A DNA stretch of 63,702 nucleotides, filler included, from Sluysia triapertura (lineage: Eukaryota), in assembly GCA_046118255.1 (NCBI GenBank). It is 5 parts of 5 records of this genome, joined end to end, with 100 filler letters (N's around TTAATTAATTAA, not from the genome) between each part and the next. Parts side by side here need not be neighbours in the genome. Positions count along the whole stretch, not along the records: positions 38,083 to 52,315 come from JBJNIA010002450.1; 4 more parts are not named here. One strand, 5' to 3'. The position numbers were made by a program, and so were the translations under genes. Under the pieces are notes generated by a model that saw only the letters and a program-made list of their open reading frames with translations, did not search any database and was not told the DNA's origin. Shown in pieces: positions 948 through 63,600 of the stretch. Within the stretch, counting starts at the first letter, position 1. Every line of letters starts with the position of its first letter.

Positions 948-2165
948 ATGGAATCCACTAACGGCCCAAATGTCCCTATGAAAAGTAAGAAGAACCAGCA
1001 ATGTATAGAATTGCGTTTTTTGATTCCTAGCAAAGTATATATATTTTTTATTAAATATTTTTTAGGCTGCTGGTTCTGTAATTGGCAAGGCAGGTGAAAA
1101 CATCAGAAATTTACGCAGAATGGTAGTGTTATTTTATTTTATTGTATTGTATTTTAGTTTTATGGTAGAATTAATATATCAGACAATAATGGTCCAGAAA
1201 GGTTAAAAACTTTGATAAATTATTATCGTATAGAATATTGTCTTTAGAAGCAAATCTAGATTCTGTATTAGATATTTTAGCACAAATATTAGAAAAAATG
1301 GAAGTATGACATTAAAATTTAATTTACTACTTTAGGGAATTATGCCTTTACCACGAGCTGGAAGTGGTGATAGTAATGAATATCATAATCAAGTTGATTT
1401 AAGAATGTTAGTGAATCAAAGTTTGGTTGGTGCGTTAATTGGTAGAGGGGGTGGCAGAATTAATGATTTGCGCGAAGTAAGTTACTTATAATAAATTTTA
1501 CATTTTTAGAAATGTGACTTGCGACTGCTTAAGGTGTATCAAGTTGTGTGTCCAGAGTCTACTGACAGAATAGTACAAATGGTGGGATCCATTCCATTAG
1601 TTATTGATTGTATCAGTAAAATTGTTGACATGTGTAAAGAAACTCCAGTTCGTGAACCAAAAATTAATTACAATGCCCAAAATTTCGATTCTATTCATGC
1701 TCAACATTATGGTGGTTGGGCCAATGCATCATCACGATCTGATGTATCAAGATCTATGGGTTTTTCAAGACCTGGTTATTCTAAGCAGCCTAATTCATTT
1801 AAATCAAATTATGAATATAGTACAAGTGAATATGGGTTAGATTTCAAGTCATATTTCTCAATTATAGATTTAGTAATTATGATGATGAAAAAGAATATAA
1901 AGAAATGAGATTACCACATAAAATGGTAGGTGCAATAATTGGACCTGGTGGTACAAGAATTCAACATGTTCGATCTGAATCAGGAGCTCACATAACTATT
2001 TCTAGTCCAGATAGATCTCCACAAGAAAGAGTAGTAACTGTGCAAGGAAATGGCTATCAAGTTAAGCGTGCTTGCAGTATGATAACAGATTGGTATGTTA
2101 ACTAAATATTTTGTTTTAATTTTTAAAAAAATTTATTTTATTTCAGTTTGAACAAATATACCTGA
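948..2165 (+). CDS. HNRNPK: Heterogeneous nuclear ribonucleoprotein K (3 KH domains), 8 exons, 322 aa
   Basis: Exons 948-1034, 1066-1122, 1158-1201, 1234-1303, 1336-1476, 1510-1835, 1868-2092, 2147-2165 splice via GT-AG introns (31,35,32,32,33,32,54 nt) into one 969-nt frame ending TGA. Three KH GxxG loops (VIGKAG, LIGRGG, IIGPGG). CPESTDR in KH2 and post-KH2 YNAQNFD..HYGGW resemble hnRNP K (YDPNFYD..YGGF). Confidence 0.93.
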
Positions 2166-3550: not shown

Positions 3551-5112
3551 ATGAATAAATTTTTACAGTTTTTAAGAATGATTCCTTATGTAGGGATATC
3601 ACATCAAAATATCCATACTTCATCACGTAAAAACATTACACAAAAACGTCAAACAAACTACTGGACTCATTCAAAAAGCAAAACCATTGTAAATATTTAT
3701 CATGAACTATAGGTATTGTTATTATAATTCCAGTCGCATTAAGATATATAATAAGTATTAGGATTATTGTCGTATAATATAATTGCCACGTAATAACTTT
3801 CATATTAACATCAACAATACCATTATTTTAAAGCAATAATTACGTTATGTTATCATTATTATTTCTTTATCCTTATTATCAACCTTTCGATTGATAATAT
3901 TATTATAGTATATTATTATAGTATATTGTGTCATCTTTTTGAAACGAATTATCGTGATAAATTCAAAACATTGAAAAAATTATCACACGTTTTTCTTAAT
4001 AATAACACTGAATTATATGATTACTCAAATTATGCTTCAACACGTTTATTGATGCAGAAGGACTTGACACTAATGCAATGTGTGGTAGCAGAATTTATCA
4101 ACTTTAATTTTCGATGTCAACCAATTTGACACGTTCATTTAAAAACTTAACTCAAATTAATCATCCTCTATATGGAATCTGTTTTATTACCCAAATTTTA
4201 CCTTCATTAAGACCTATTTTTACAAAAAATGATTTCTTTGAATTTCAATATTTCGTTATTAAACCATTTATTCGTTCTTTATTTACAGATATTGATAATT
4301 TACTCTTACAATATTTTAATATTTATATTATACCTATAAATACGTATCCACCGATTGATAATAAAATTAATTTTGATTCAAAAGATATTTTTATTGATCA
4401 AAATGTTTACCAAAAAATGACGAAGACAAAATGTTTTTCAGAAGAAAGGAAAAAAGCGATCTTATTCAATTATCGCCAAATTAAATCAACCTGTAAAATT
4501 TGAGTAAAGTGAATATTTATGTCAAAATGTTGCTGCACAACAGTGGATATTTTGGTGAAAATTATCAAATGGCACAATCAATTTATTGATTATAAATAAA
4601 ATATAACTAGAAATAAAAAAAGCTTGAATAAAGCAATCGATAAATTTAATAAAAAGTGTGAGATCTCTAAAGTACATGTATGTCCAGAATTATGTTTATT
4701 AAAAACTTAAAACGTAAAATCAAATAGATTTATTCAAAAATTTCCCGATATAATTTATAATGATACCGCAAAACTTATAGAAGAGAGATATGAATATTTA
4801 ATGAATAGATCAAAAAACTTACAACGTTGTAATACAATTTTAATTGAATAAATGTTTCTGCTTACAATCCATTTATTAATCTAGATCGAATTAAAATCAA
4901 AAATTCCTGATTTGTACTATGAAGATGTTGAAAATATAGGTGGTTATCAATTTATATCAAATATTGGAGGGTTGTTGGGTATCTTCATTGGTATGAGCAT
5001 CACAAGTGCATTGCAAATATTTGAATTACTTATAAATATTACAAAAATTATTTTAAAAATATATCTAAAAATTATCCAAAAAAATCAATATTTTGGTCTT
5101 ATAATATGTTAG
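3551..5112 (+). pseudogene. DEG/ENaC (amiloride-sensitive sodium channel family) gene, disrupted
   Basis: TM2/filter motif FISNIGGLLGIFIGMSITSALQIFE (4912-5112), HPLYGICF, Cys-rich thumb remnants (TCKI*VK*IFMSKCCC; CPELCLLKT*) and post-TM1 IITLC. Frameshift near 4115-4130 and several in-frame stops not removable by evident introns. Confidence 0.8.
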
Positions 5113-9578: not shown

Positions 9579-12500
9579 TTATTCCTTATAAAATATTCGA
9601 AGCTATTTTTTGTTCTGCAATAACTAAATTTGATTACAAATTACATTATTTTCTTAAGCAATAATTTACATTTAAACAAACTTTATTTAAGAGCCAACTT
9701 TTTTAATATTACATCTTAAGGACAGACAAAAAATAACTCGACAAACTTAAGTTTAAAACAATGTTAAGTTTATTAATAAAATTCATATTTTGATATATAA
9801 TCTAATATATAATACATTGAAATTGAGATTTGTGAATACAATGTATCTAGAGTGTCTAATAAACAATGTTAACATATTTTGAATTAAGATAATTTTTCAT
9901 TATGGTAGCTATCCAAATCTTGTTCAGATATACCATTGTCAAAAATAAATGCATTTTCAGAGGCATTTGTAATATCGGCGATACCTGAATCTTTTCTTTC
10001 CTCTTGGATCACTTCATCCTTAGTGCTATCCAGGTTATTATTATTATATAATAATTATTTATAATAATCATAAAATATAATATTTATTTTGTATTGTATT
10101 TATAATTAAATATAATAGGAAATGTTGATTTTTAACCGGTATTAAAAATTGCTTAACAATTATGGAAATTTTAATATTAAAAAGCATTAAAATTTTTCAT
10201 TATCACATTTTAATCTGCCAATATTAAGGCATTGTGTCGTCAAAGATATACAGTTTGGAGGTTTTACAACCAGTATATAGAACACATGTGGTGACGGTAC
10301 ACCTAAAATGAAATAATAATAATAATGAATTCATGACCACAATAACAATTACTATAGTAAAAATAATGATTGTATTTTTGGCCTTTTGTTTATATATTGT
10401 TTGAATAATGTCTAGTACTTGTTTTTGAAATAAATCACATGAAGATTAATAGAAGCACATAGACTTATTCAAATAAGTTAAATATTTGAATTACGGCATC
10501 AGATTTTGAACTTTATGAAGTCAGTAACCAGTGGCTTCTTGAGATTACAAAACAAAACCATTTTAAAACGATTTTAAATACATTGAGTCAAGTGACGATA
10601 CATATTTCATTATGCGGAGAGTAAAGAAAATGCTCACGTCGTTTTGTCCAAATTTTCTTTAGATATAACTATTCAAGGACAAAGTCATAATATTACTCCT
10701 AAAAAAGTCAAAGAACAATATTAATGCAGATAACACAAAATTCGTGCACAGCACATTGTCAACATTAGCTCACGCTGCTCGTATTTATACTTAGAATCTT
10801 ACAAGTTGTTCGAATAAAATAGCACTGGCAAGAATTAAAAATCCGATCGGTATATCAACACAGTTTTTGGAAATATCGAAACAATATGGGCACCAAATTC
10901 AAAAATGAATCAACGGTGATTATCATTATTTAAATACATTAACAACACATTTTAAAAGGATATTCGATTATTTTGCTTTTGTTCTGCGTTTTTAAAAATT
11001 TATTCGTATAATAAATCAAACTTACCTTACACCACGCCTAATTTTAAAACAATGTTTTCGTTAATTTAATTGATTTAGTTTTAGCATTTTCTAAAAGTTT
11101 TAGGTTACAGTTTAAAAATAGCAATATAAATAATTCGATAAAATTTCAAAAGCATTTATTGGTTACTCTGAAGTTCTAGGCAGAAACTTAAATTAAATTA
11201 GATTTGACCGATGTGAAATAAACTTGTTCTACACAGTGCTGTATTGTATAAGTTATGACCTAATCATGACATTCGAGTCTTCTCGTCAGAAAGAATTATA
11301 TGTGAATATTACAAATTTTCGAAATTCTATGTTACCATCGTCGCTAATTCCATTCAAAGTTTAAAAGTGTTTACGATCATGCAATTACTTTTGTTATTCA
11401 TCCACGATCTAAATATATCATGGTAAGATATGATAAACTAGCTTTAAAAATAGGCTTCGTCAGTAGAACCGAATGTACTCTTTATTTCGATTGACCTAGA
11501 AATTATTACGAGTTTTAGTAACTTCTTATCTTCATAATGACGTAATCAAGCATGAATTTGAAATGACAATTTTTTAATTTCAAATTGACAGATAATTTTT
11601 ATGTTAGTCAAGTCTGTGGATATCACTTTATTATTAATTAAGCATTCTGCTACTAATGTCCATTCATAAGCCGCTGATTTACGTAAATCACAACTCTTAC
11701 TCGTTTCAGTCGTATTTATCGCTTAACGTTAATTTCGTGTTCATAATGTAAGCTAGTTGGATGATGTTAGTTTTTAATAAGAGATTCTTGACACTAGTCC
11801 TATAAAGTTCATTCATATATAAACCAATCTGAATGGCAACACTTATCCATTTTCTTGAAATAAAATCAGTTTGGGTGTTCTGAAATCAAGGAGAAAGTTG
11901 CGTTTTGCATACCAAAATATGACATATTCTTATATTTTATTTTAGTTTCAATATCATACTTATAAAGTTTTAGATAGATGATGACGTTTATAAAAATATT
12001 AAGCAAATTTTCTGAATTGATGATTTTCCATTCTTCCAAGTCTTGGCTTAGTCTTGCGTCATTGTCAATAAAATACGATCATAATAGACGTGAACGCTAC
12101 ACCATGACATAATCGAATAAATCTAATTAGCTCGATTAGTTTAAATGTTTTACTGATTTCCTGTAAACCTATCCCAAAATGAAATTGAATTGATGTAGGA
12201 TTTACATATAGAGAAAATCTTACATCCTCATGAAAGTTACTCCCATAAGATTTTTAGTCTGGATAAAATTTAAACTTGTTATTGCTTCTCCTCTGATGGT
12301 ATAACTTTTCTTAAATTTTTGTTATTTTGTCTTCAGAATACATTTTGATATCTCAATTACTTGTTTTTGCTTTCCTTATGTGGTGTCCCGGCCAGAGACA
12401 ATAATTGTATTACAATTCAAATACACAAAAATATTCCACATACATTATAAAATTATTAATATTAAAACCATGATAATCAATTGTATTAATATTAAGTTTT

Positions 12501-13795
12501 ATCAACATCTTCAAAAGTATCATTACGAAAAGTACTACTAATTCTTACAATACTTTTTGCGAACGATTTGAATTATGCAGCTGTTTTTAGAATTACAGAA
12601 ATTGTTGTGTAACGTTTTTTGGGTTCTTCCGTTCATTTCTTATGTCGGGAATTGTTTTCAATTATTAATTGCAATTTCGAATCACATATACTCATTATTA
12701 TAATATGTATTTCGAATTGACAAATATAAATGTCATAGATTAACAAAAATATAAATGTTATAAATTGACGACAATATAAATGCTATCAATTAAAAGTTTG
12801 CTCGATGTGAAAAATCAATTTTGTGAATTTTGCAATATCTCTGCAACAATCTCTAACTAAACAGAAATGCCCGATTCAAGATATACAAAAATAAGTTGTA
12901 TTGTAACAGTGAAAAAAGCACTTCCTTATTTAGTATTTAGTAATTTACTAGCAAATATTTTCACTTCATAATAAATTTTTGTTAATTTCTATTATTTGGC
13001 TCAATTCATTTCTATAAGCTTATACTATTAATTAAATTTAATATGTAATTTATTACTCATAGTCTTGTGTGTTACAAGTACTATACATACCATAAATTTA
13101 ATAAATTCGTATACAATAAAATTAAATAATTTTTCTTATGTAATAAAGAAAACAAATATTGAATAATTAAATGAAATAAAAACATATGTTTAATTATAAT
13201 TTTAATATTTGAGAAAATAAATACTAAACTACATGTTTATTTTAAATATTAATTTATTCAGTTAGTAAATAATGAATCATATGTTTATCTTAATTAGTTT
13301 ATTCAATTGTAATGCTCATATGTTTATTCAGTAATAAAATATATAAATGGGTTTGACATATCGGTTTTCACAAAAAAAAATAAAAAGATTTTTCGACAAT
13401 AAAATGAATTATTCGGCAATTATTTGCAAAATAGGAAGACTTAAAGATATCGTTAACAAACAAATTGATTGTATTATCTTCACGCCGAAATTTTGAAAGT
13501 TTTTTGTGCGCAAGTATTTTCCTTACTTAAGTAAGACATAATATTATACTTAAATTTCTAATTCTTAATTATTAAATTATAATTTCTTCTAAAATATAAA
13601 ACAAAGCCATCGGAGTTCTGTGCTATAAAATTTTTACAGATACCTAAGTTTTATAGGTGCATCGTTAAATTTAATATAAAATATAGATGAACCAACAAGT
13701 AGTAAACAATTTTTCCCTTGAAAATAAAAGCTTGCAATTATTTAACTAAATTCCTCTTTTATTAAGCAGATAAACTGCTTCTATTAATAAGTCGA

Positions 13796-13867
<72 letters not shown>

Positions 13868-13870
13868 TAT
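13796..13870. repeat. (TAT)n microsatellite
   Basis: Directly visible trinucleotide run abutting a gap. Confidence 0.95.
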
Positions 13871-13970: not shown

Positions 13971-15920
13971 GAAGACTTTTTGTCATCTCATATGAACAAA
14001 GGCAATGTTATTGTAGTAACAACAAATTAAATTTGAGATAACTTATTGATCTTTCCACTCCATTCTTTAAACTCCATGCAAAATTTCAAGAAATTTAATA
14101 CTTGATAAGTTATTAAACCATAATAAATAACAATAATGATATTTTTATAATAATAACTTTATATATAACTTTATGATTTTACAAAATATTCAATGGTTTA
14201 TCACATTTTAGTTGAGCAAGTCCACAGTCCAGTACCACTGAATATAATTCATTGACATACTATTCATTACAATTGTGTTTATTTACCATTTATTCAAATT
14301 GATTTATTTCCTTTGTTATTCACTTTATTTTATCCTCTAATAAAATTTATATTGATATCTTATAAGAAATGTATCAAATTGTTTATTGTGAATACTTTTA
14401 ATTTCTTTCCTGTTATTCTGATTTAACTTTCTAATTAGAACTTAATTATTTACAGCTTTTCGTTCTTGGCTAATTAAGTGTGGTAAATTCCATTAATTTT
14501 ATTTTTCTTTTATTATCTTTTGAGAGTCTTTTTCTGAAATAATTCTTTCCAATTTTCAAATTTCTAAGTTTTTCTTAAGATCATTAAAGTTCTTGAGCAA
14601 TTTATTTTAATAATTAAGTTTCATTTTAAAATTATTATATTTTCTTTATAATACCATTTAATATTATTTTAAATAAAAGACAAATGTATTACTATTTTGA
14701 AAAGCAGTGTATGTTTCGTTAAATCATTAAATTAAATCAAAAATTTAATCAAAGTAAATTACTTTTGAAACATTATTTTAATTAATTTATTTCATTTTAT
14801 TTTAATTTAATTTGATCAAATATTAAATTATAAAGTGGTTCAAGAAAAACCACGATTTAATATTGGAGAAAAATAAATCCTATATTTTTTAAATTAAATA
14901 CAGGATACAGTAAAAAAAGTTTTTTGTTCAATCGATTTTAATAATTTAATAAATATTTCTGTTAATTGTAACAAACTTATGCTTTCAGGTTAGAATCAAT
15001 AAGGAACCCACGTAAAATATAAATCAGAATTAAGAAATTAGCACATATAAAATATAAATACTTAAATTAATAAAATTACAAATATAAAGTTTCAATAATA
15101 TAAAATTAAAATTATATTAATAAGGTTGATACATTAAAATATCGGAAATAAAGAAAAATTGAAAATAAGTAATTCTTAAACAAATTATTATTTTAGCAAC
15201 CTCACGTAATGCCGATAATAATAATAATAGTAATGATAATTATGTTGGAACATTGAATATGTTAAACAACCAATTAAAAAATTATATTTTACAATAATGA
15301 AAAACAAATTATTAAACTGAGATGATAATTATCTCAACTGTCTTCATAGCAAGAAGTTCTGTGTTCGAATAATATTAATAATAAAAATAATAATTCTATA
15401 ATGATAATATTCGTGTATTTAGCTGGAGTACGCAAGGAGATTTTCAAACCAACCAACCACTGCCCACAGTCAAGGTCAAATTATTCACAGAAAACACTTC
15501 AATTCTTTCATTAGATCACAAAGAACTTGGACGAGTTAGTTTGTGAAAAATTGACATTTAAATCAACATATGCAATCAAATGGAAATATTTTCCACAATA
15601 ATCATATAAATAATTATGTAAATAATTTACAAAAATAATTATCATAAAAACTATTATCAAAATAATTATAATAATGATAATTATTTAAATAAAATAAAAA
15701 ATAATTATTTGATGATTATTTTATGATTGAAAATATAACGCAATAAAATGTTTTACATTTGAATTAAATAAATGAAATAATTTTTCGTATTAAGTTTCAA
15801 TTGTTATAAAAAAATATTCAATAAATTATTTTAAATAATTTATAATTATAAATATTTACATTTAGACTTTTTCAAAGCTTTAGGCTTTATTAATTTACTA
15901 ATTATGTAGACCTTTAAATT

Positions 15921-19840: not shown

Positions 19841-20130
19841 TGAAAGCTATTTGTTCTTATACTTACTAATAAATTAAAACTGTCGAGTCCGCCTACGATC
19901 CTAGTCTTACTCACTTAAGGGCTTAAGTACGTAGGATTTAAAAGAATTAATAGAAGTCGATTTTATTATTATAAGGATGCAAATTCAATAATTTTATAAT
20001 ATACCAATGGATTCTGTTTCCTCTTTTAAGCGAGATTAAAATATAAAAGATTTTATATTCGATCCTCTTTAAATGAGATGTTATGATTTGGTGTTAAAAA
20101 CCAGAAAATTAAGTAGTATATATTTTACAA
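19841..20130 (-). mobile_element. Diverged solo-LTR remnant of the Gypsy LTR family (structured motif copy A at 19882-19939)
   Basis: Contains GTCGAGTCCGCCTACGATCCTAGTCTTAC...CGTAGGATTT and a later ATCCTCTTTAAA block shared with other copies; far boundary uncertain. Confidence 0.5.
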
Positions 20131-20329: not shown

Positions 20330-20609
20330 CTAAAAATTATTACTAGATATTTTGAGTTGTAATTTACTAACACAAATAGATGGAGATGATGGATAAAAAT
20401 CAATTTTCCATATTAAGCTGTTTTCCAACAATTCATATCTTTTAAAAGAACTTTTAATCAAATCATAACATTTCTCTTGAACGCATTGGTGTGTTTCGTT
20501 ATTAATGTACACACAAAATGTTCCACTGTAATCTTATGTGACTCCTTATTCAACAATAGAAAGTACTTTCTCATTCTGAATTTATTATTTGAATTTATTA
20601 TAAATTTGA

Positions 20610-20669
<60 letters not shown>

Positions 20670-21290
20670 CTAAAATATTTTTATATAATTTATTATTACG
20701 TTATTGAAATTAATGTCTAAAATTACAAATAGTTTACAATATGAAAATAAAACAAAATAATAAACACAAATAATTATTACGTGACCACGACATAATTTAA
20801 TCAGCTTATGATCATGAAAATTATCGCAAAAGATTTCGAAAAAGAAAAAAATCGTTTTCATTGTTGTCATTAAGTTCTAAATTTTTTAAGTTAATTTTCA
20901 TTGGATATTCATTTTGAGCTTCGGAATCCTGCATTCTTTGAAAATCGACAGTTGTGAAAATTTTTCGATTAGTCGACCCAGATTTTTCGCACTTTTTTCG
21001 TAGCACGCTTTTCAAAATCGTCGCATTCTTTTAAATTCATGACGTTGAATTCTTAGTAGGTTTGTACGTGAAGAAAGGTAATCATAAGTTTAATATCTTT
21101 GTTATTTTCATTCGAAAATCAAGAATTTCTATATTTCTACGTGTTACCTGTTTCAACATTACCAATGTGATTACAAAAAATAATATTTCAACAAAATGTG
21201 CAACACATACTGAGCAATTCATTTTAACCAAACGGTCAGGCCATGTAAAATTAGCGTGGAATTCAATGTGTTAAGTATCTAGCACAAAAA
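20330..21290 (-). pseudogene. Probable second DEG/ENaC pseudogene (N-terminal half)
   Basis: STLILHGL (HG motif), then after a frameshift a TM1-like segment (HFVEILFFVITLVMLKQV) and LPFFT; further frameshifted ORFs 21015-20821, 20870-20670, 20512-20330. Confidence 0.4.
20610..20668. repeat. (TTA)n microsatellite
   Basis: Directly visible; explains the poly-Tyr ORF. Confidence 0.95.
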
Positions 21291-23304: not shown

Positions 23305-23697
23305 TTAACTCAATATTTATATATTTATTTATTAAGTATATATTTTTCTTCTAAATTAATGTTTTATTATTATTCAAATAAATTTATTGTCTTGAAAAGA
23401 TCTGTGTATCATACTATACTTTTATTATTCGACCAATTTCAAAATTTATTGCGTAATCTTAGGGAACCATTTTTTGCAGATATTTTATCTTTTTTTTAAT
23501 TTGTTTTTTTACTCGATATTTTCCATTTATCTATTTATTGATGTCAAATCTAAACTTTTATTAAACTTTTAAAGGCTAATGTTGTAACTGTAACATCTCG
23601 GCTGTTATTATTATTATCATTATTATTACTTATAACTGATTATTAATTATTGATAATATTGCTATGTTATTTTTTTAATTTAATTTAAATATTATAT

Positions 23698-24915
23698 CAG
23701 TGTTCTTCAAAAGGGGTTTGCGAGAAATTTCAAAGTTATAGTAAAGTATTCATAAGAAAATATTCTTTAAATATGAGAAGTCTAATTTTAAATATAATTA
23801 TTCTTTTATTTTATTCACATTATTGAAGTGGATCGTAGCACCTAATAGGAGACTAAAACTTTTTTAAATTAGTTAGAATTAGGGTCATTTTAAAAACTGA
23901 AAAACACTCTATGTTAGCACTAAAATGGTTACATAAAACTAGAAACAACAACAATAATAAATAATAAACAATTTATTTTAATTAGATTTTTTGATTAGTT
24001 TAAATTAATCGTTGAAATAATTAAGAGCAACCTTATTACTAATAAACTTACAAATTTATGAATCAAAAATTTGCTTCTGCAATCCCGGGGGTAAGACATG
24101 AAATTTTGATATATTGATAATATGTTTCCAATTATCTTGACGATTTGCTTGTAGAAGTGGTACAATTTATTGTGTGTCTTGTATAAAATTTACCCCTCTT
24201 TACATACTACTTTGTTAAGTAGATAGTGTGTGCAAAAATTAATAATAAATTTAGTTTAATGCATTTCCCATTGATTTAATTGAATTTTGCTTATTCTGTA
24301 ATTTATTTATTTATTTTAAAATTATCTTAATTATTAAATTTAATTAAAGTTTTAATTAATGCTTTAAGAATTCTTAAAGTATTAAAAGGTTTCCGCCATT
24401 ATTTGAGTTATGTCAACCTTTATTTCAATTTTGCCATATTTCAATGCAAAAAGAATAATTAAGTTTTACAAAATTTAAATAACAGTTAATAATAAATAAA
24501 ATAAGGATTAATAAAATTTAACAATTATAACAAACTTGAAGTAAGGTAATTTATGCAATACTTGGTAATATATTAAGAAGCATTCTTATAATTAGTCTAA
24601 ATGGTAATAATATTAAGTAATTACTGACTCAGTAGTCTTCACAATTTTGTGCTGCGACTCACTTTACCAGACCAAATTTTTTCGCGACGTAATAATACCT
24701 AAAAATTAAAATATATTTAATAATAACATATTCGAACATACTCTTATTGAGACTATGTTTTTGAATTAGAAAAAAAATTACTATTTTATCGTCTAATACT
24801 AATATCAATAAAATAAAAGAATAATTGTATTAGAAATTATTTAAAATTAGACTTTTCTTATGAATATTTTACCATAACTTGGACATTTCTCGCGCCCCCA
24901 TTTTGAAGAACACTG
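23698..24915. mobile_element. Non-autonomous hAT DNA transposon
   Basis: Perfect 15-bp TIR CAGTGTTCTTCAAAA ... TTTTGAAGAACACTG plus subterminal GCGAGAAAT/ATTTCTCGC; no ORF; 8-bp TSD not preserved. Confidence 0.8.
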
Positions 24916-25866
24916 ATCTAGCTGATCTTTATTTTGAAAAGCTAAGAGTAATTAGGTCGCGTTTTTATAATCAAGGAAGATTCCATAATATAAATTTACA
25001 CTAATAATTATATTTTCTAATGCTGATATGAGACAGTATTCATGATATAACATTCATTGGAATTATAAAGTGTAAAAATAATAAAAGTACTTTATTTAAA
25101 CGTAATTTGAACTTAAACTTACACTTACAAAATAATTTATCCGAGATTAGATTCACCGAACAAAAACGGTTTTGTATTTATTGCTAAAAGACGGCTTATT
25201 AAGTTGTATATTATTCAATCGAAGTATAAACTTTAACGCAAAATAACAAGTTTTAGAATATAGAGTCTAATCAACAAATTTAAATAAACAAATTTAAATA
25301 AACAAATATAAACACTCTCCAAAATTTATGTTTAACAAAGATTTCTCTTAATATTAAATGATAGATTTATTTTCATTTGGTGAACAAATGTATGATTTGT
25401 AGCTATCATCCCTATTATTATTAGTAGTGTTATTGTGATATTTATTATTATTATTATTATTTAATATTATGAAAATAAATTATTAATTGCAAATGAAGAT
25501 GGTTATACTTACACCAACCCAATATAACTAACATCATTGGCTATAATTACTGTATTCGTTATCTGTATCAAAAAAAACTTCTAATACGATCTCATGTCAA
25601 GGAAAAATATAATTCTACTTGAATTTGTTTTAAATGTCAAATAAAATATCTTATCTGATTTAGAAGATCATTGATGATTTATCTAAGTGTAAAATTTTGT
25701 GTTGAAACTTTATATTATTTTGTGTATTTTAAGTTTACACTCTGTTTTAAAAGTACAGGACACGCCCCCCCTATTTTTGCTGTGTATACAAACACAATTT
25801 TAATTACTATATTGCATTTAGTTAAATAAATTTCGTTTCAAAAGTATAGTGTTAGACTTCGTAAAA

Positions 25867-40086: not shown

Positions 40087-40582
40087 TGTAAAATACTAAA
40101 GTAATTTTATTAACTCAAAATAAGTTATAAGATAAATTATTATATATTATTTATTTAATGACTTTATTTGTAACTTTGTAATTGCGAATTAATTTGAACT
40201 TTTCCCTAAATGAGAAAAGTTGATAGATTCATTTAGTGAATAAGTGCAAATTTTATAATTTCAAAGTAATAAATTAGCCACTGCATAAACATTTTTCTCT
40301 CCGAATTTCATTCGGATTCGTAAAATAAAAAGTAATACAAATCCTTTCATAGGATTTCCATAAAATAACCATTAAATATCATCCTAAATAAATTGTTTAA
40401 AATTATATCATTTGATAAATAATTGTAGATACACTCATATAACCTCCATATTAGATTTTGGAATTTTTTAACTTTAACTAACTTAAAAATCCAACTCCTA
40501 ACCCTAACCGGTAAGCCTAGTACGTTGGTGGACTCACTTATTAGTTTACTTTATTCCGTAAGGTTAAGAAAAACGCATCACA
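40087..40582 (+). mobile_element. 5' LTR of Ty3/Gypsy-type retrotransposon (~496 bp, TG...CA; motif copy D at 40486-40537)
   Basis: Starts TGTAAAATACT, ends CATCACA just before a PBS; boundaries supported by similarity to 29700-30185 and 42138-42241. Confidence 0.7.
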
Positions 40583-40588
40583 ATAAAC

Positions 40589-40606
40589 TGGTGCCCAGAG
40601 TGAGGA
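40589..40606 (+). promoter_or_regulatory. Primer-binding site complementary to elongator tRNA-Met 3' end
   Basis: TGGTGCCCAGAGTGAGGA versus the complement of animal tRNA-Met(e), TGGTGCCCCGTGTGAGGA; lies between LTR and gag. Confidence 0.7.
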
Positions 40607-40831
40607 CCAGTATTTACAACGATATAAGAATAAATATAAAGATTTAAGCATTTAAGAAAAAGCTTCAGAATAATAATTTTAGAATTTGATTATGATTTCA
40701 TTAAGAATAATTTAAATGTGAGCAAAATTATTATATCCTAAGTTGATTATTAACAGATTAAGTAAGTTTTAAGAAAAATAGATAAACAAATCGTACTACA
40801 CGATGATTACAGATCAAAACTAAGAAATTAT

Positions 40832-41973
40832 ATGGCACTATCTAATGATTTTAAGGAATGTATGGCTGAAGAAATTTGAAATGAAAAAATTTGATGGAGC
40901 AGAGGAAGATCTCTGCGATTTCTTATTCGAATGCAAAAGCATCGCTTAAAGCAAACGGCTGGAATTAAGCCGAAAAAATAAAACGAATCCAAAATTATTT
41001 AACTAGTTTGGCGATCCAGACCTATAAGGAAATAAGTAATAATAATAAACAGACTTGGAATGAATTTGTTAACGCCCTTACTGAAGAAATTGCACTTGAT
41101 TACATGGGAAAGTATTGTACTAAAATGTTAAATTCTAGGATACAAAAGCCAAATAATCTGTATGTTAATACGTTTGTGATCTAAAAAGCTTTGTTGCCAG
41201 AGCAAAAGTCTCTGAAAATAAAAAAGAAGCAACATTAATGGATAAATTAAAAACTGGCCTACGACCAGAATTATATATATGTTACTTTAATAAAAGAAAA
41301 ACCTTTCAAAGAAGTAATTAAGAAATTAAGAAGTATAGAACGATCTTATATTTATGATAAGGATAATATTAATTATGTAAATGATGATGATGATAATAAT
41401 GATAATACAAACGAGATAAAAGTCCAAACTTTACAATTAATAAGGATAATTTTCATAATCGATATATGAATAACTCCTCAAATTATGACAATTATAATAA
41501 TAATCAAAGTAATTCTTATTATAATCGAAATAGCAATTACAAGAGATTTAATAGCCAACGAAGAGGTTTTTCAAATAATTATAGGGTAACTCAAATAATT
41601 ATTATAGAGAAAATAATAATAGTTATAGTGGATTCCAAAATAATAGAACAACTAATTATGGTGCATCTAATTATGAGAAAAGACCAGCACCAAGACGCCC
41701 CCTAGTTCTAACTTTAACAGGAATATGGGTAAGAGTCCAGTAAGATATGAAAATAATAAGACTCAAACTTATATGTATGGAGAGATAATCTGTGATAACT
41801 GTAATAAAAAAGGACATTACGCAAAAGATTGTAGGAAATTAAGACAAAGTGTATTTACTCAAGATTTTATTAAAGTAAGGGGCCAACATCAACAAAGATA
41901 CCAAAACCCTATAAGGAAAGTAAGGTTTAATGATGATAATAATAATAATAAGGGTAATATAAGGGACAGGTAA
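40832..41973 (+). mobile_element. gag: Gypsy-type gag pseudogene (capsid plus CCHC zinc knuckle); pol absent
   Basis: KKFDGAEEDLCDFLFECKSIA/ANGWN capsid motif, KLKTGLRPEL, Asn-rich linker, CDNCNKKGHYAKDC knuckle; multiple frameshifts and stops. Confidence 0.85.
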
Positions 41974-42137
41974 ATTGTAACTATAGAACTCAATAAGATT
42001 ATGGAAATAACAGAAATAAATCAATAAAATAATAAATAGTTAAAAATAGACACGTAATATTTGTATTAGTTTAAAATAGATATATAATGTTTGTGTGTTT
42101 ATTCATATTTACATATATTTACAAATATTTGTTGTCA

Positions 42138-44035: not shown

Positions 44036-45640
44036 TTAAGCGTTACTTGTCTTGAATTTATGAGATAATACACCTTTCTTCATCATAATCCACATATATT
44101 GTATTGTATCAAGATCAATATGACATATGTTTGTGGAAAATTATTCTAAATTTTGGGAATGTGCAGAATTTGAATATAATTTGTTGAATTCATTTTGCCA
44201 GAAATATTTCCCAAATATGTCTTCTAACAAGTATTTTAAAGCTTCTATTTAACTTAAAAATCATAATTTTCCCATTGATATTAACATTTTTCAATTAACA
44301 TTTTTGAGAACATCCTATTATTTTTCTTTTAATTTTTCTTGAATAAATTGACGATATTTAAATTACTTCATTTAATCTTACGTGTTTTGATAGTACACCT
44401 TTAGATCACATTGTTAACAAATCCTGTTAATTTATTGACCATCTTAGGAAATATATATTTGTCACTTTACTTGACCTGGCCATAGTATTGATCTGTTCTG
44501 ACTACCAAACAAAAATATTTACCTATAACATATCTAAGGAGCACCTGGTGCCCGTCCGATTGTAGAAACATAGGAAGCCACTGATTCATTAGAAGACGAG
44601 TTAAATGTATTTAAACGTTTAGTAACTAATTCGAACATTTATATAATACTATTGTCAAATTTCTGTTTTATATGTTTAGTATTTGCACTCATTAAGTTTA
44701 TTACGTATTATCCTAACAACATCTGACTTTGCAATTCTTGATTTAATTATGAGCAACCCTATATATAGAATTAAAACAAAATCTAATGAAAATCAATTAA
44801 TCGAAATTATTTAATTATTTCCTTTAGTAGGAATAATTGTTTAATTTTACTTAAATAAATAAGCAAACATTATATAATTATTGCAGATAATTAAAGTTGA
44901 AATTATTATTAATATATAAAATGATTATTTTAATTTCTATTTATGTTCACTTCTTACTACATAATATTCTTGTATACTGTAGATTCTAGAAATATTTTCC
45001 AAAACTTTTTCCAAAAAATGTCCTGATTTAGACGGTTTTGATTATTGATTATTAATCAAGCTTTTCCTTACTTCATTGCATAACTTTATTTAAATCTGTA
45101 AAACTTTGTACACAGCAAATATAGAATTAACACAAGTAAATATTTGCGAATTCTGAAAGGGCAAATGATGTATTACCTAATTCTTACATAAAATCCTAAT
45201 CTTAAAAATCCTTTTCAATATGAAGAAAGAATTATCAATTTCGTTAAAAGTATCCAAAAATAGTCACAGAATTACCAGGCAATCATTTATATTAAGAATG
45301 TTCTAACGTAAAACGATCTTTATACAAAACATATATAATTCATATTAATTTAATTTCCAATGCTTGATACATTTTGATCCTAGAATTTAATCAAGGTTTC
45401 AGATGCTTCTAAGCAAATTCATTTATATTATTTCATGTAATGATACAATTTTCCCTTTACATTCTCACCATCTTCATCTTTTAGTACATTCATTATAAGA
45501 TTTTGTCTTGTACAAATTTCATGAATTTAAAACACTATTAATAAAATTATTATTGATGCAGAAATTACATATTATTATAATATAAAATGAGAGATTGAAA
45601 TTTACTCTGATATCACATATCTACTACAGAAATTATAAGA

Positions 45641-45704
<64 letters not shown>
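45641..45704. repeat. (ATT)n microsatellite
   Basis: Directly visible. Confidence 0.95.
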
Positions 45705-45706
<2 letters not shown>

Positions 45707-53628: not shown

Positions 53629-53720
53629 TGTAATAAAGTTTATAATAAAATGCTCAATATTAAGTGAATTCACCTACGATCCTAGACTTACGAGTTACGG
53701 CTAGTTCGTAGAATTTTAAA
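53629..53720 (-). mobile_element. LTR 3' end remnant (motif copy E at 53664-53716)
   Basis: TGTAAT...AATAAA...GTGAATTCACCTACGATCCTAGACTTACGAGTTACGGCTAGTTCGTAGAATTTT. Confidence 0.55.
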
Positions 53721-58518: not shown

Positions 58519-58913
58519 TGTAAAAAAACTTCAAATGTACATTCATATTTATATTGTTAATAAAGTTTTCAATTTTCGTTAAAATTTTATCATTATAGTT
58601 TTAAAATCATAAACTTGATTATTTAGATGTTTTCATATACTAGAAGTCAATTCTAGTTAGTAAAATATATTTTTTCCGATTCCATATAACGGAATCGACG
58701 TAACATTATAATTCAATTTGTTAAATTTGACACATAACTAAATTTTTAAGAATTTACCTCCAGAATTAAGAAGTTAAGTAAAATCTTCGTAGTTTAAAGT
58801 TAAGTATCATTTTTCTTACGTTAAAATCCAACGGCTGGCGTTCGCTGGTAAGTCCAGTACGTTGGTGAACTCACGTTAATTAATTCGTTTTATTCTCTAA
58901 CTCACTTGTTTAC
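58519..58913 (+). mobile_element. Solo-LTR remnant (motif copy F at 58823-58874)
   Basis: TGTAAA start, GATTCC..GGAATC hairpin, AAATCCAACG...CGTTGGTGAACTCAC, TTTATTC, ends TTTACA; boundaries approximate. Confidence 0.55.
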
Positions 58914-62462: not shown

Positions 62463-63600
62463 TCAGTTGTGAAGTTCTGAAATATAATAAATAAAGATAA
62501 AAGTGATGATCATGGATAAAAAATTCAAAGTTATTTGTAGTATTAATTCACTTACGATGCAAGAGTTAGTATTTTCATATTGTAGATGATTTTGAAGACC
62601 ACTGAATTTGGACTTACTGTAAAGATAACTCGAATTCATTGATACCAATAGGTTGTCCTTTTTTGCCAATGTTCATCAGCTTATTGTTCATCTCCATTAA
62701 TTTGACAGATTTTGTGATAAAAACTACAAAATTTTCCGAACATGGTACATTCTTCAAAAGCATTTGATTGATAATGGCATTGTGTTTTACGTACTGTAAT
62801 ATCATTTAATAACAAATCCCAAGGATAAAAATGAGTAAAGCCGTCTTCTGTACTTATATTTGACTGGTTCTTGTACATTTCTAATTAAGAATTCAATATT
62901 TGATCTAGATGGTACTTCATCATCAGTAAGAGTTAAGTCATTTAAGCTTTTGTTGATATTACATACATGTAAGTCATTCAAAATTGTTTTACTAGCATTT
63001 CTATAAAATGGGTTTGATATAAACGTTGAACAAGGACTCTGACTAAGCTGGTACATATTACTCTTTCGGTATCTGAATTTAGGAGACATAATTTGTAATT
63101 CATTAGCACTAAAATTACGATCTTTATCTACTGAAAGACATATTCCTACATTTAACTTTGATAATAAAAAGTATTGTTGCTTATTATTAAAATTTATAAT
63201 CTCTAAGATAATAGGGAAATCATATTTCGAGTTACTGTAACGCAGCCAACGATTTTTATTACGTTCTTTTACATGTTGTAGTTCGACTCCACCATGATAG
63301 CACATTATAATTTTTATTAATTCAATCTGCTTCTTAGTTCTGGAATTGATAATAGGTCGTACATTTTCATCTTGATCTTCATGAAGTGATTGATAACTAA
63401 CAAACTTATCTAAAGAATCATTATTTTTAAATTCAACCGTAAAATCAGTTTTGACATTATCATCAAGTTCATGTACAGTTTGATTGTTATAGCTATCATC
63501 ATTTTCATTTTTATAGTTATTTATACAAGATGCAACTTGTTACTAGATAAGCTTGTCGATCTTGTCGAATGTTTCGAATCATAAATTTCTTTAACATCTA
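62463..63600 (-). pseudogene. Frameshifted gene with C-terminal transmembrane anchor; 5' end probably beyond the window
   Basis: Four overlapping minus ORFs (63305-62802, 62878-62681, 62805-62614, 62669-62463) ending in LILQITLNFLSMIITFIFIYYI. Confidence 0.45.

Follow-up and report, generated by a model that had tools for sequence, protein, structure and literature searches.

A dispersed hairpin motif of Sluysia triapertura with the layout of a primer activation signal, putatively in the U5 of a Ty3/Gypsy-like retrotransposon group

A 52-base motif with a predicted hairpin was found in six dispersed copies (A to F) in a 63,702-nt stretch of Sluysia triapertura DNA (the window, i.e. the whole stretch that was analysed). 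The motif is an abundant, sharply bounded and real cis element, and it probably represents the conserved U5 segment of the LTR in an abundant Ty3/Gypsy-like group. On balance, we favour the reading that it is a priming signal similar to the primer activation signal (PAS) of retroviruses, together with an adjacent hairpin, which acts on gag-sense RNA in the LTR of this retrotransposon group. Because its layout matches that of the HIV-1 PAS, the motif is best read as a U5 priming element that uses the other strand than a first-pass annotation had favoured, in which the motif was read antisense to gag.

Results

Six copies of a bounded motif

All six copies were present at the positions and with the letters given by the first-pass annotation (Table 1), the string quoted for copy E overshooting position 53716 by one T. 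The invariance of the loop pentamer (CTTAC when read antisense to gag) was confirmed in the full copies, and the surroundings are indeed more diverged than the motif: identity among the four full copies was 0.72 in the core versus 0.58-0.64 in the flanks, the latter being at the background level given by random 50-mers (0.60 ± 0.05). T-rich sequence is found on both sides of the core. A covariance model built from the four full copies, whose columns are out of register for two helices and which was used as a search profile only, recovered these four together with B (E 0.0008) and C (E 4); the remaining five of its 11 matches (E 0.8-4.5) look like chance. A pattern for the full element gave no match in metagenome or viral contigs.

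Table 1. Features of the motif and of its surroundings in the window.
Feature	Position	Strand	Evidence or remark
Copy D, full conserved core	40486..40537	+ (= gag-sense strand)	letters and covariance-model search
Copy F, full; perfect box 58866-58874	58823..58874	+	letters, contig depth, 9-mer count
Copy E, full; box 53664-53672 with one G-U	53664..53716	-	letters, 9-mer count
Copy A, full; box with one inserted base, longer loop	19882..19939	-	letters, pair count
Copy B; loop pentamer lost, perfect box and perfect inner hairpin	29746..29785	-	
Copy C; loop pentamer lost, endpoints differ from B; box kept with one G-U	39204..39240	-	
Predicted hairpin of copy D: outer 6-bp stem, inner 4-bp stem, 15-nt loop; decayed in D	40491..40528	+	pair count
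Loop pentamer GTAAG, invariant, resembles a 5' splice-site core	40511..40515	+	4/4 full copies
PAS-like 9-nt box, complementary to primer tRNA nt 49-57; one G-U in D	40529..40537	+	
18-nt primer-binding site (PBS)	40589..40606	+	complementary to tRNA nt 59-76
Decayed gag fragment (frameshifts, stops), Retrotrans_gag-like	40969..41181	+	ESM Atlas match, PF03732, score 0.92 (lead-level)
Gag fragment with one CCHC zinc knuckle	41677..41970	+	PF00098, E 4.8e-05, above cutoff
Upstream motif AYCTCC	40442..40447	+	20-61 nt before the hairpin, 5/6 copies
TTTATT (AATAAA antisense)	40550..40555	+	8-14 nt after the box, 6/6 copies

The bounds of the motif were read from a sequencing run (X1), in which 2383 contigs cover 80 nt around copy F. 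Summed contig depth, which is no copy number, drops from 444,692 at 58872-58874 to 8,122 at 58881-58883 on one edge and from 185,509 at 58824-58826 to 29,681 at 58818-58820 on the other, placing sharp edges at about 58821 and 58877. Variants among the contigs around copy F occupy only three central positions, every one in the loop.

Copy D lies upstream of a PBS and gag remnants

On the plus strand, copy D is arranged in the order hairpin, 9-nt box, 51 nt, 18-nt PBS and gag, the PBS being the sole full one of its kind in the window. From its sequence, a gag capsid-like domain and a CCHC knuckle after the PBS, copy D appears to be part of a Ty3/Gypsy-like element, an assignment which applies to this copy only. 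A Pfam search of the fragment at 40969..41181 gave no gag-family match, a weak search among longer proteins found no homologue of the gag fragment, and neither pol nor a second LTR was seen in the window beyond about 42000. In run X1, summed depth reaches 30,000-170,000 across the element, around the PBS and at the beginning of gag, compared with 150-940 farther upstream; the PBS and gag are connected by several contigs, and the element and the PBS occur in the same order on the gag strand of a single diverged contig with 27 differences and 7 gaps. A copy would be placed by chance at most 60 nt before the only full PBS of the window, in this orientation, with a probability of about 0.3%.

The description of the copies as an LTR family is supported for D, which has the PBS and gag, but not for the other five, which have no gag beside them; the PBS is likewise found beside D alone (1/6), and the flanks of the copies are at background level. 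TGT...ACA ends with a 4-6 bp target-site duplication were found for none of the six copies (0/6) within 700 nt upstream and 90 nt downstream, and the five copies other than D are therefore assigned to LTRs by likeness only.

Several further observations concern the neighbourhood of copy D. One contig of run X1 jumps from 40744 to 40462 (window 40444-40744), so that the post-PBS leader is followed at once by sequence from immediately before the hairpin; an internal deletion in a copy with two direct LTRs would give this arrangement. A 129-bp inverted repeat pair of 87.6% identity (39506-39630 / 42005-42133) brackets copy D together with the gag remnant; gag ends near the right arm, and the arms may represent either a pair of MITE-like insertions or the termini of a DNA transposon carrying the fragment. 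GTAAG recurs after TTTATT on the gag strand of D, B and A (40558-40562, 29721-29725 and 19862-19866; 3/6 copies), and this second occurrence could be a further partner of the box or a second donor-like site.

Two short motifs accompany the copies. On the antisense strand, AATAAA lies 14-20 nt before GTGAG in 6/6 copies (background 2.8%), and GGAGRT, the complement of AYCTCC, lies 20-61 nt past the T run in 5/6 and is preceded by T in 4; the latter pattern, chosen after the copies had been seen, occurs in 0.82% of random 70-nt windows. Both would fit the U5 of an LTR reading antisense to gag, composed of AATAAA, a GT-rich start, the hairpin and a short PBS starting with TGG, with copy D as the head-to-head neighbour of the gag element. 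An AATAAA/GT-rich U5 layout is described for Metaviridae LTRs (PMC3601003), and PBSs of 8-9 nt for cestode elements (PMC4558846). Yet the letters past the motif are AT-rich and differ among copies, with the spacing varying from 20 to 61 nt, a CA end is found at most 6 nt before the GGAGRT motif in just 2/5 cases, five of the six copies would need to be 5' LTRs, and the diverged contig repeats the order from element to PBS on the gag strand. We consider such an antisense LTR very unlikely.

The box complements the T-arm of the predicted primer

An 18-nt PBS covers tRNA nt 59-76, of which nt 61-65 are the 3' strand of the T-stem; its 5' strand is formed by nt 49-53, followed by TTC-R of the T-loop. 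Since the PBS of copy D supplies the 3' strand, the 5' strand of the primer's T-stem (nt 49-53) is predicted to read GTGAG. The letters of nt 49-57 are then the first nine of the motif read antisense, and hence the motif on the gag strand ends in their complement. The PBS takes nt 59-76 and the box nt 49-57, with nt 58 left out. ARAGORN found no tRNA gene in the window, and the T-arm strand was read from the PBS, not from the organism's own gene; elongator tRNA-Met is a tentative guess at the primer of this PBS.

The T-stem rule was checked in public metagenome and viral contigs with patterns for the PBS-derived 3' end that excluded nt 49-53. ARAGORN called tRNAs at 36 of the 59 matching loci, and all 36 carried GTGAG-TTC-R at nt 49-57, compared with 1 of the 23 other loci. 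As these tRNAs (35 Leu and 1 Thr) come from metagenome and viral contigs, they confirm the rule, not the identity of the primer.

Among 126,078 9-mers on both strands of the window, only six pair with nt 49-57 without mismatch and with at most one G-U, and all lie in copies B-F, with E counted twice. Such a site arose in 712/100,000 shuffles of the 120 nt before the PBS and in 403/100,000 shuffles of the D core, and a perfect site in 42/100,000 shuffles of the F core. Calculated duplex energies of the boxes with a real tRNA arm range from -9.4 to -11.7 kcal/mol. All substitutions in the first eight box positions of the six copies still pair with the tRNA, as G-U, which is weak evidence because 6/8 possible transitions in the box would keep this pairing anyway. 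In free RNA of copy D, the box is predicted to pair with the PBS (p 0.83-0.96 in 4/4 folding windows). Copies B and C have kept the box and lost the loop. A box-plus-PBS pattern gave no match in viral contigs. As the PBS complements a tRNA over its full length, self-priming was discounted. Other GC-rich sites starting with TGGTG, at 12381, 44546 and 47132 (+), may be decayed PBSs of other families, and none has an upstream box.

Stems and folds do not select a strand

Stem pairs were counted by coordinates in the four full copies, giving 40 stem cells, of which 35 are Watson-Crick. The other five are two G-U pairs and three mismatches on the strand antisense to gag, and one G-U pair and four mismatches on the gag strand; with counts so nearly equal, neither the outer nor the inner stem points to a particular strand. 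Compensatory changes, claimed earlier for both stems, are present but amount to one compensated pair per stem among the four copies (A-T/T-A in the outer, A-T/G-C in the inner stem). None of 12 single-strand folds was better than its shuffles (z -1.38 to +0.85), and the outer stem of copy D is poorly populated, with predicted pairing probabilities of 0.01-0.6 in four folding windows.

The claim that G-U pairs favour the antisense strand does not hold for these two stems but does for two other pairings. The first is the 7-bp helix between box and loop, in which 25/28 cells are paired on the antisense strand versus 21/28 on the gag strand. The second, absent from the first-pass annotation, is an alternative inner hairpin with a 4-nt loop, which pairs in A, B, C and E, with differing letters, at 6-7 of its 7 positions, contains two antisense-strand G-U pairs in C and likewise in E, is disrupted in D and F, and in F favours the gag strand. 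The clean 7-bp inner hairpins formed by B and C may indicate selected short subfamilies and not random decay.

These pairings bear on the possibility that the antisense strand is the working one, either through a box/loop pseudoknot in antisense RNA, possibly a new self-cleaving fold, or through the same pseudoknot in minus-strand strong-stop DNA, where the loop might also recapture the T-arm. In addition to the helix count and the G-U pairs of C and E, the sharp onset of conservation at the first G, 14-20 nt past AATAAA in all six copies, would fit this reading, and the minus-strand loop can pair with tRNA nt 49-56 at 8/8 positions in F, at 7 in each of D and E and at 6 in A. However, the GTGAG/CTTAC pseudoknot proposed earlier was not borne out: its first four pairs are invariant, none of its pairs shows changes on both sides, and copy E breaks a central pair yet keeps the tRNA pairing. 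The box is retained where the loop was dropped (B, C), and the preference of the F inner hairpin runs the other way. The antisense strand was not upheld as the working strand, since the stems are strand-neutral and complementarity to the T-arm of the primer tRNA, read on the gag strand, is the better explanation for the invariant 5' segment; four to six copies are too few to decide the working strand by themselves. Because the minus-strand copy of the loop could pair with the same tRNA arm, the G-U pattern might be accounted for without antisense RNA. We regard an antisense working strand as unlikely, and its specific form, a new pseudoknot in very many genomic copies that is either an RNA whose self-cleavage site is the first G, lying 14-20 nt past the antisense AATAAA, or a switch in minus-strand DNA taking the T-arm from the RNA box once this has been copied, as distinctly so.

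The inner hairpin, covarying in A, B, C and E, might also be expected if the motif were the 3' end, acting as a recognition site in DNA form, of a non-autonomous Helentron of HINE/DINE-1 type, in which case copy D would merely have landed in or beside a Gypsy LTR. The quasi-palindromic antisense 10-mer about 50 nt from the T run, with a short hairpin between them, fits the HINE geometry (subTIR at 38-60 bp and palindrome at 8-35 bp from the 3' end; PMC4067079), and the T-rich flanks on both sides and the high copy number are compatible with this reading. On the other hand, an inverted 12-mer partner within 3 kb is absent for 5/6 copies, which are decayed, and the sole match lies inside gag; no box-like 10-mers with at most one mismatch occur outside the copies; a common motif is found 20-61 nt beyond the supposed end in 5/6 copies; and both the tRNA complementarity and the position of the PBS would have to be coincidence. 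A Helentron end therefore appears decidedly improbable to us.

Ribozyme families and other classes

The absence of a fit to hammerhead, HDV, twister, pistol and twister-sister ribozymes, noted in the first-pass annotation, was corroborated: there was no Rfam ribozyme match at E up to 5 in the window or up to 10 in two 261-nt regions, no hammerhead core, and no family-model or core-motif match for hammerhead, twister, twister-sister, pistol, hatchet or hairpin ribozymes. The helix order of the antisense pseudoknot resembles that of an HDV-like fold. An HDV-like ribozyme was rejected, since a 5-8 nt L3 together with P3 is needed between P2 and P1' and only 5-6 nt are present, and an HDV descriptor, which had no positive control, gave 0 matches in 12 strand regions.

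Among other classes, weak Rfam matches to mir-458, MIR1512, RUF1, K10_TLS and MIR7991 are far below gathering and were taken as chance. A spliced-leader RNA was rejected because the letters preceding GTGAG vary among copies, a Pol III box B because A is absent at position 58, and a canonical Helitron 3' end (hairpin followed by CTAG) because 17 conserved letters follow CTAG.

The loop pentamer

GTAAG corresponds to positions +1 to +5 of the splice-donor consensus. The hairpin could accordingly display a 5' splice site on the gag strand, at which U1 suppresses polyadenylation in the 5' LTR or a spliced mRNA starts, a function compatible with a PAS. The pentamer is invariant in the full copies and copy F reads CTG|GTAAGT; foamy viruses carry such a donor in the LTR (PMC3694450). 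Against this, the flanking donor positions vary (weaker in D, E and A), B and C lack the loop, no gag-strand AATAAA is conserved downstream, and the box is left unexplained, which makes RNA processing most improbable as the main role of the motif. The pentamer is the least explained part of it.

Other features of the window

The window is animal DNA with a GC content of 24%. It contains a KH-domain exon (PF00013) at 1830-2102 (+) and a fragment of an amiloride-sensitive sodium channel (PF00858) at 4885-5109 (+), inverted repeat pairs at 23693-23822 / 24800-24920 (79%) and 27076-27221 / 37599-37737 (71%), long imperfect palindromes at 618-752 and 15597-15856, and long TAA-type trinucleotide microsatellites at 13780-13870, 20596-20670, 29066-29150 and 45630-45705. 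An AT-rich hairpin at 63473-63535 (+) scores 27 bits with mir-458 against a gathering threshold of 59, probably by chance.

Discussion

A putative priming element

The preferred reading, a U5 priming element on gag-sense RNA, is PAS-like by sequence and predicted structure, and its function in priming is putative. In free RNA, the box would be paired with the 3' half of the PBS, as predicted for copy D, and so be masked before the tRNA arrives. Annealing of the tRNA 3' end to the PBS would open both the box-PBS helix and the T-stem of the tRNA, and the freed box could then pair with the 5' strand of the T-arm, which may promote initiation of minus-strand synthesis. The neighbouring hairpin might position or gate the box, and the loop pentamer could serve as a U1/splice-donor site or as a second tRNA contact that is dispensable in B and C. 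The five other copies would then represent LTRs, solo or broken, from diverged subfamilies which share little beyond the signal.

Several observations speak against a PAS: the antisense strand is favoured by the GTGAG/CTTAC pairing and, in C and E, by the inner hairpin; the antisense AATAAA (6/6) and GGAGRT (5/6) are left unexplained by the model, the box of copy A carries an insertion, and the outer stem of D is weak in the predicted fold. The earlier proposal of an undescribed cis-acting RNA of a retroelement stands in so far as the motif is a conserved cis element with no Rfam match, but not with regard to the antisense strand. That proposal had been set against an ordinary U5 hairpin; a U5 priming element such as retroviruses are known to have is the most likely identity of the motif, and for animal Gypsy elements we found no PAS-like U5 box described in a literature search that covered mostly open-access titles.

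PAS-type control of priming has been described for retroviruses, and yeast elements touch the T-arm of the tRNA from other positions. If the preferred reading is true, the presence of a box of retroviral style before the PBS of a Ty3/Gypsy-like element from an invertebrate would suggest that this control is older or more widespread than assumed, and the very large natural set of copies would permit a direct test of covariation between box and primer, which is hard to prove for HIV. The motif could also mark solo LTRs whose flanks have decayed to background. If instead the T-arm is relayed between strands, a single tRNA arm would be handed from RNA to DNA.

Comparison with known systems

HINE/DINE-1 3' ends share with the motif a near-palindrome, a short hairpin and a T run at similar spacing as well as many copies (PMC4067079), but no second subTIR was found here and the shared sequence extends past the T run. 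As at the major splice donor of foamy viruses, a donor-like sequence lies within a structured LTR region (PMC3694450); unlike there, no downstream poly(A) signal is conserved on the gag strand and the loop is missing in 2/6 copies.

Pairing of retrotransposon RNA with the T-arm outside the core PBS is known from Ty1 (boxes 0, 1 and 2.1) and from the bipartite PBS of Ty3 (PMC3592414, PMC5371799). However, Ty1 has a 10-nt PBS and boxes in the GAG region (PMC3592414), in contrast to the 18-nt PBS and single box 51 nt upstream found here, and the second site of Ty3 is located about 4800 nt away in U3 (PMC5371799). Drosophila gypsy is likewise an animal Gypsy element with a second, 11-nt primer site (two tRNA-Lys2 sites), but this site lies at the 3' end of the genome and is unneeded for cDNA synthesis (PMC1635307). 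For tapeworm Saci2 elements, changes of the PBS are discussed and no such box is mentioned in the text available (PMC12471100).

Helenus TRIMs resemble the motif in having tRNA-related letters in the LTR of an LTR element, but carry a tRNA-like gene copy without complementarity to their PBS (PMC10886601). A Helenus element (TRIMp3) was ruled out, with no tRNA in the window by ARAGORN and a match limited to 9 nt. Here, by contrast, the nine nucleotides related to the tRNA stop at nt 57, before the invariant A58, and the box pairs with the PBS.

The HIV-1 PAS and its partner, the anti-PAS of tRNA-Lys3, were reportedly described by Beerens and Berkhout in 2002. In the HIV-1 model, a PAS of 8 nt within U5 is masked at first and then binds tRNA nt 48-55 (PMC3675109, PMC11251516). 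The box described here differs in comprising 9 nt directed against nt 49-57, in being predicted to be masked by the PBS itself and not by a U5-leader stem, in abutting a two-stem hairpin, and in belonging to a non-retroviral, Ty3/Gypsy-like host element in which its function is putative. Like the HIV-1 PAS, it is a short box upstream of an 18-nt PBS that complements the 5' strand of the T-arm and is predicted to be base-paired before priming.
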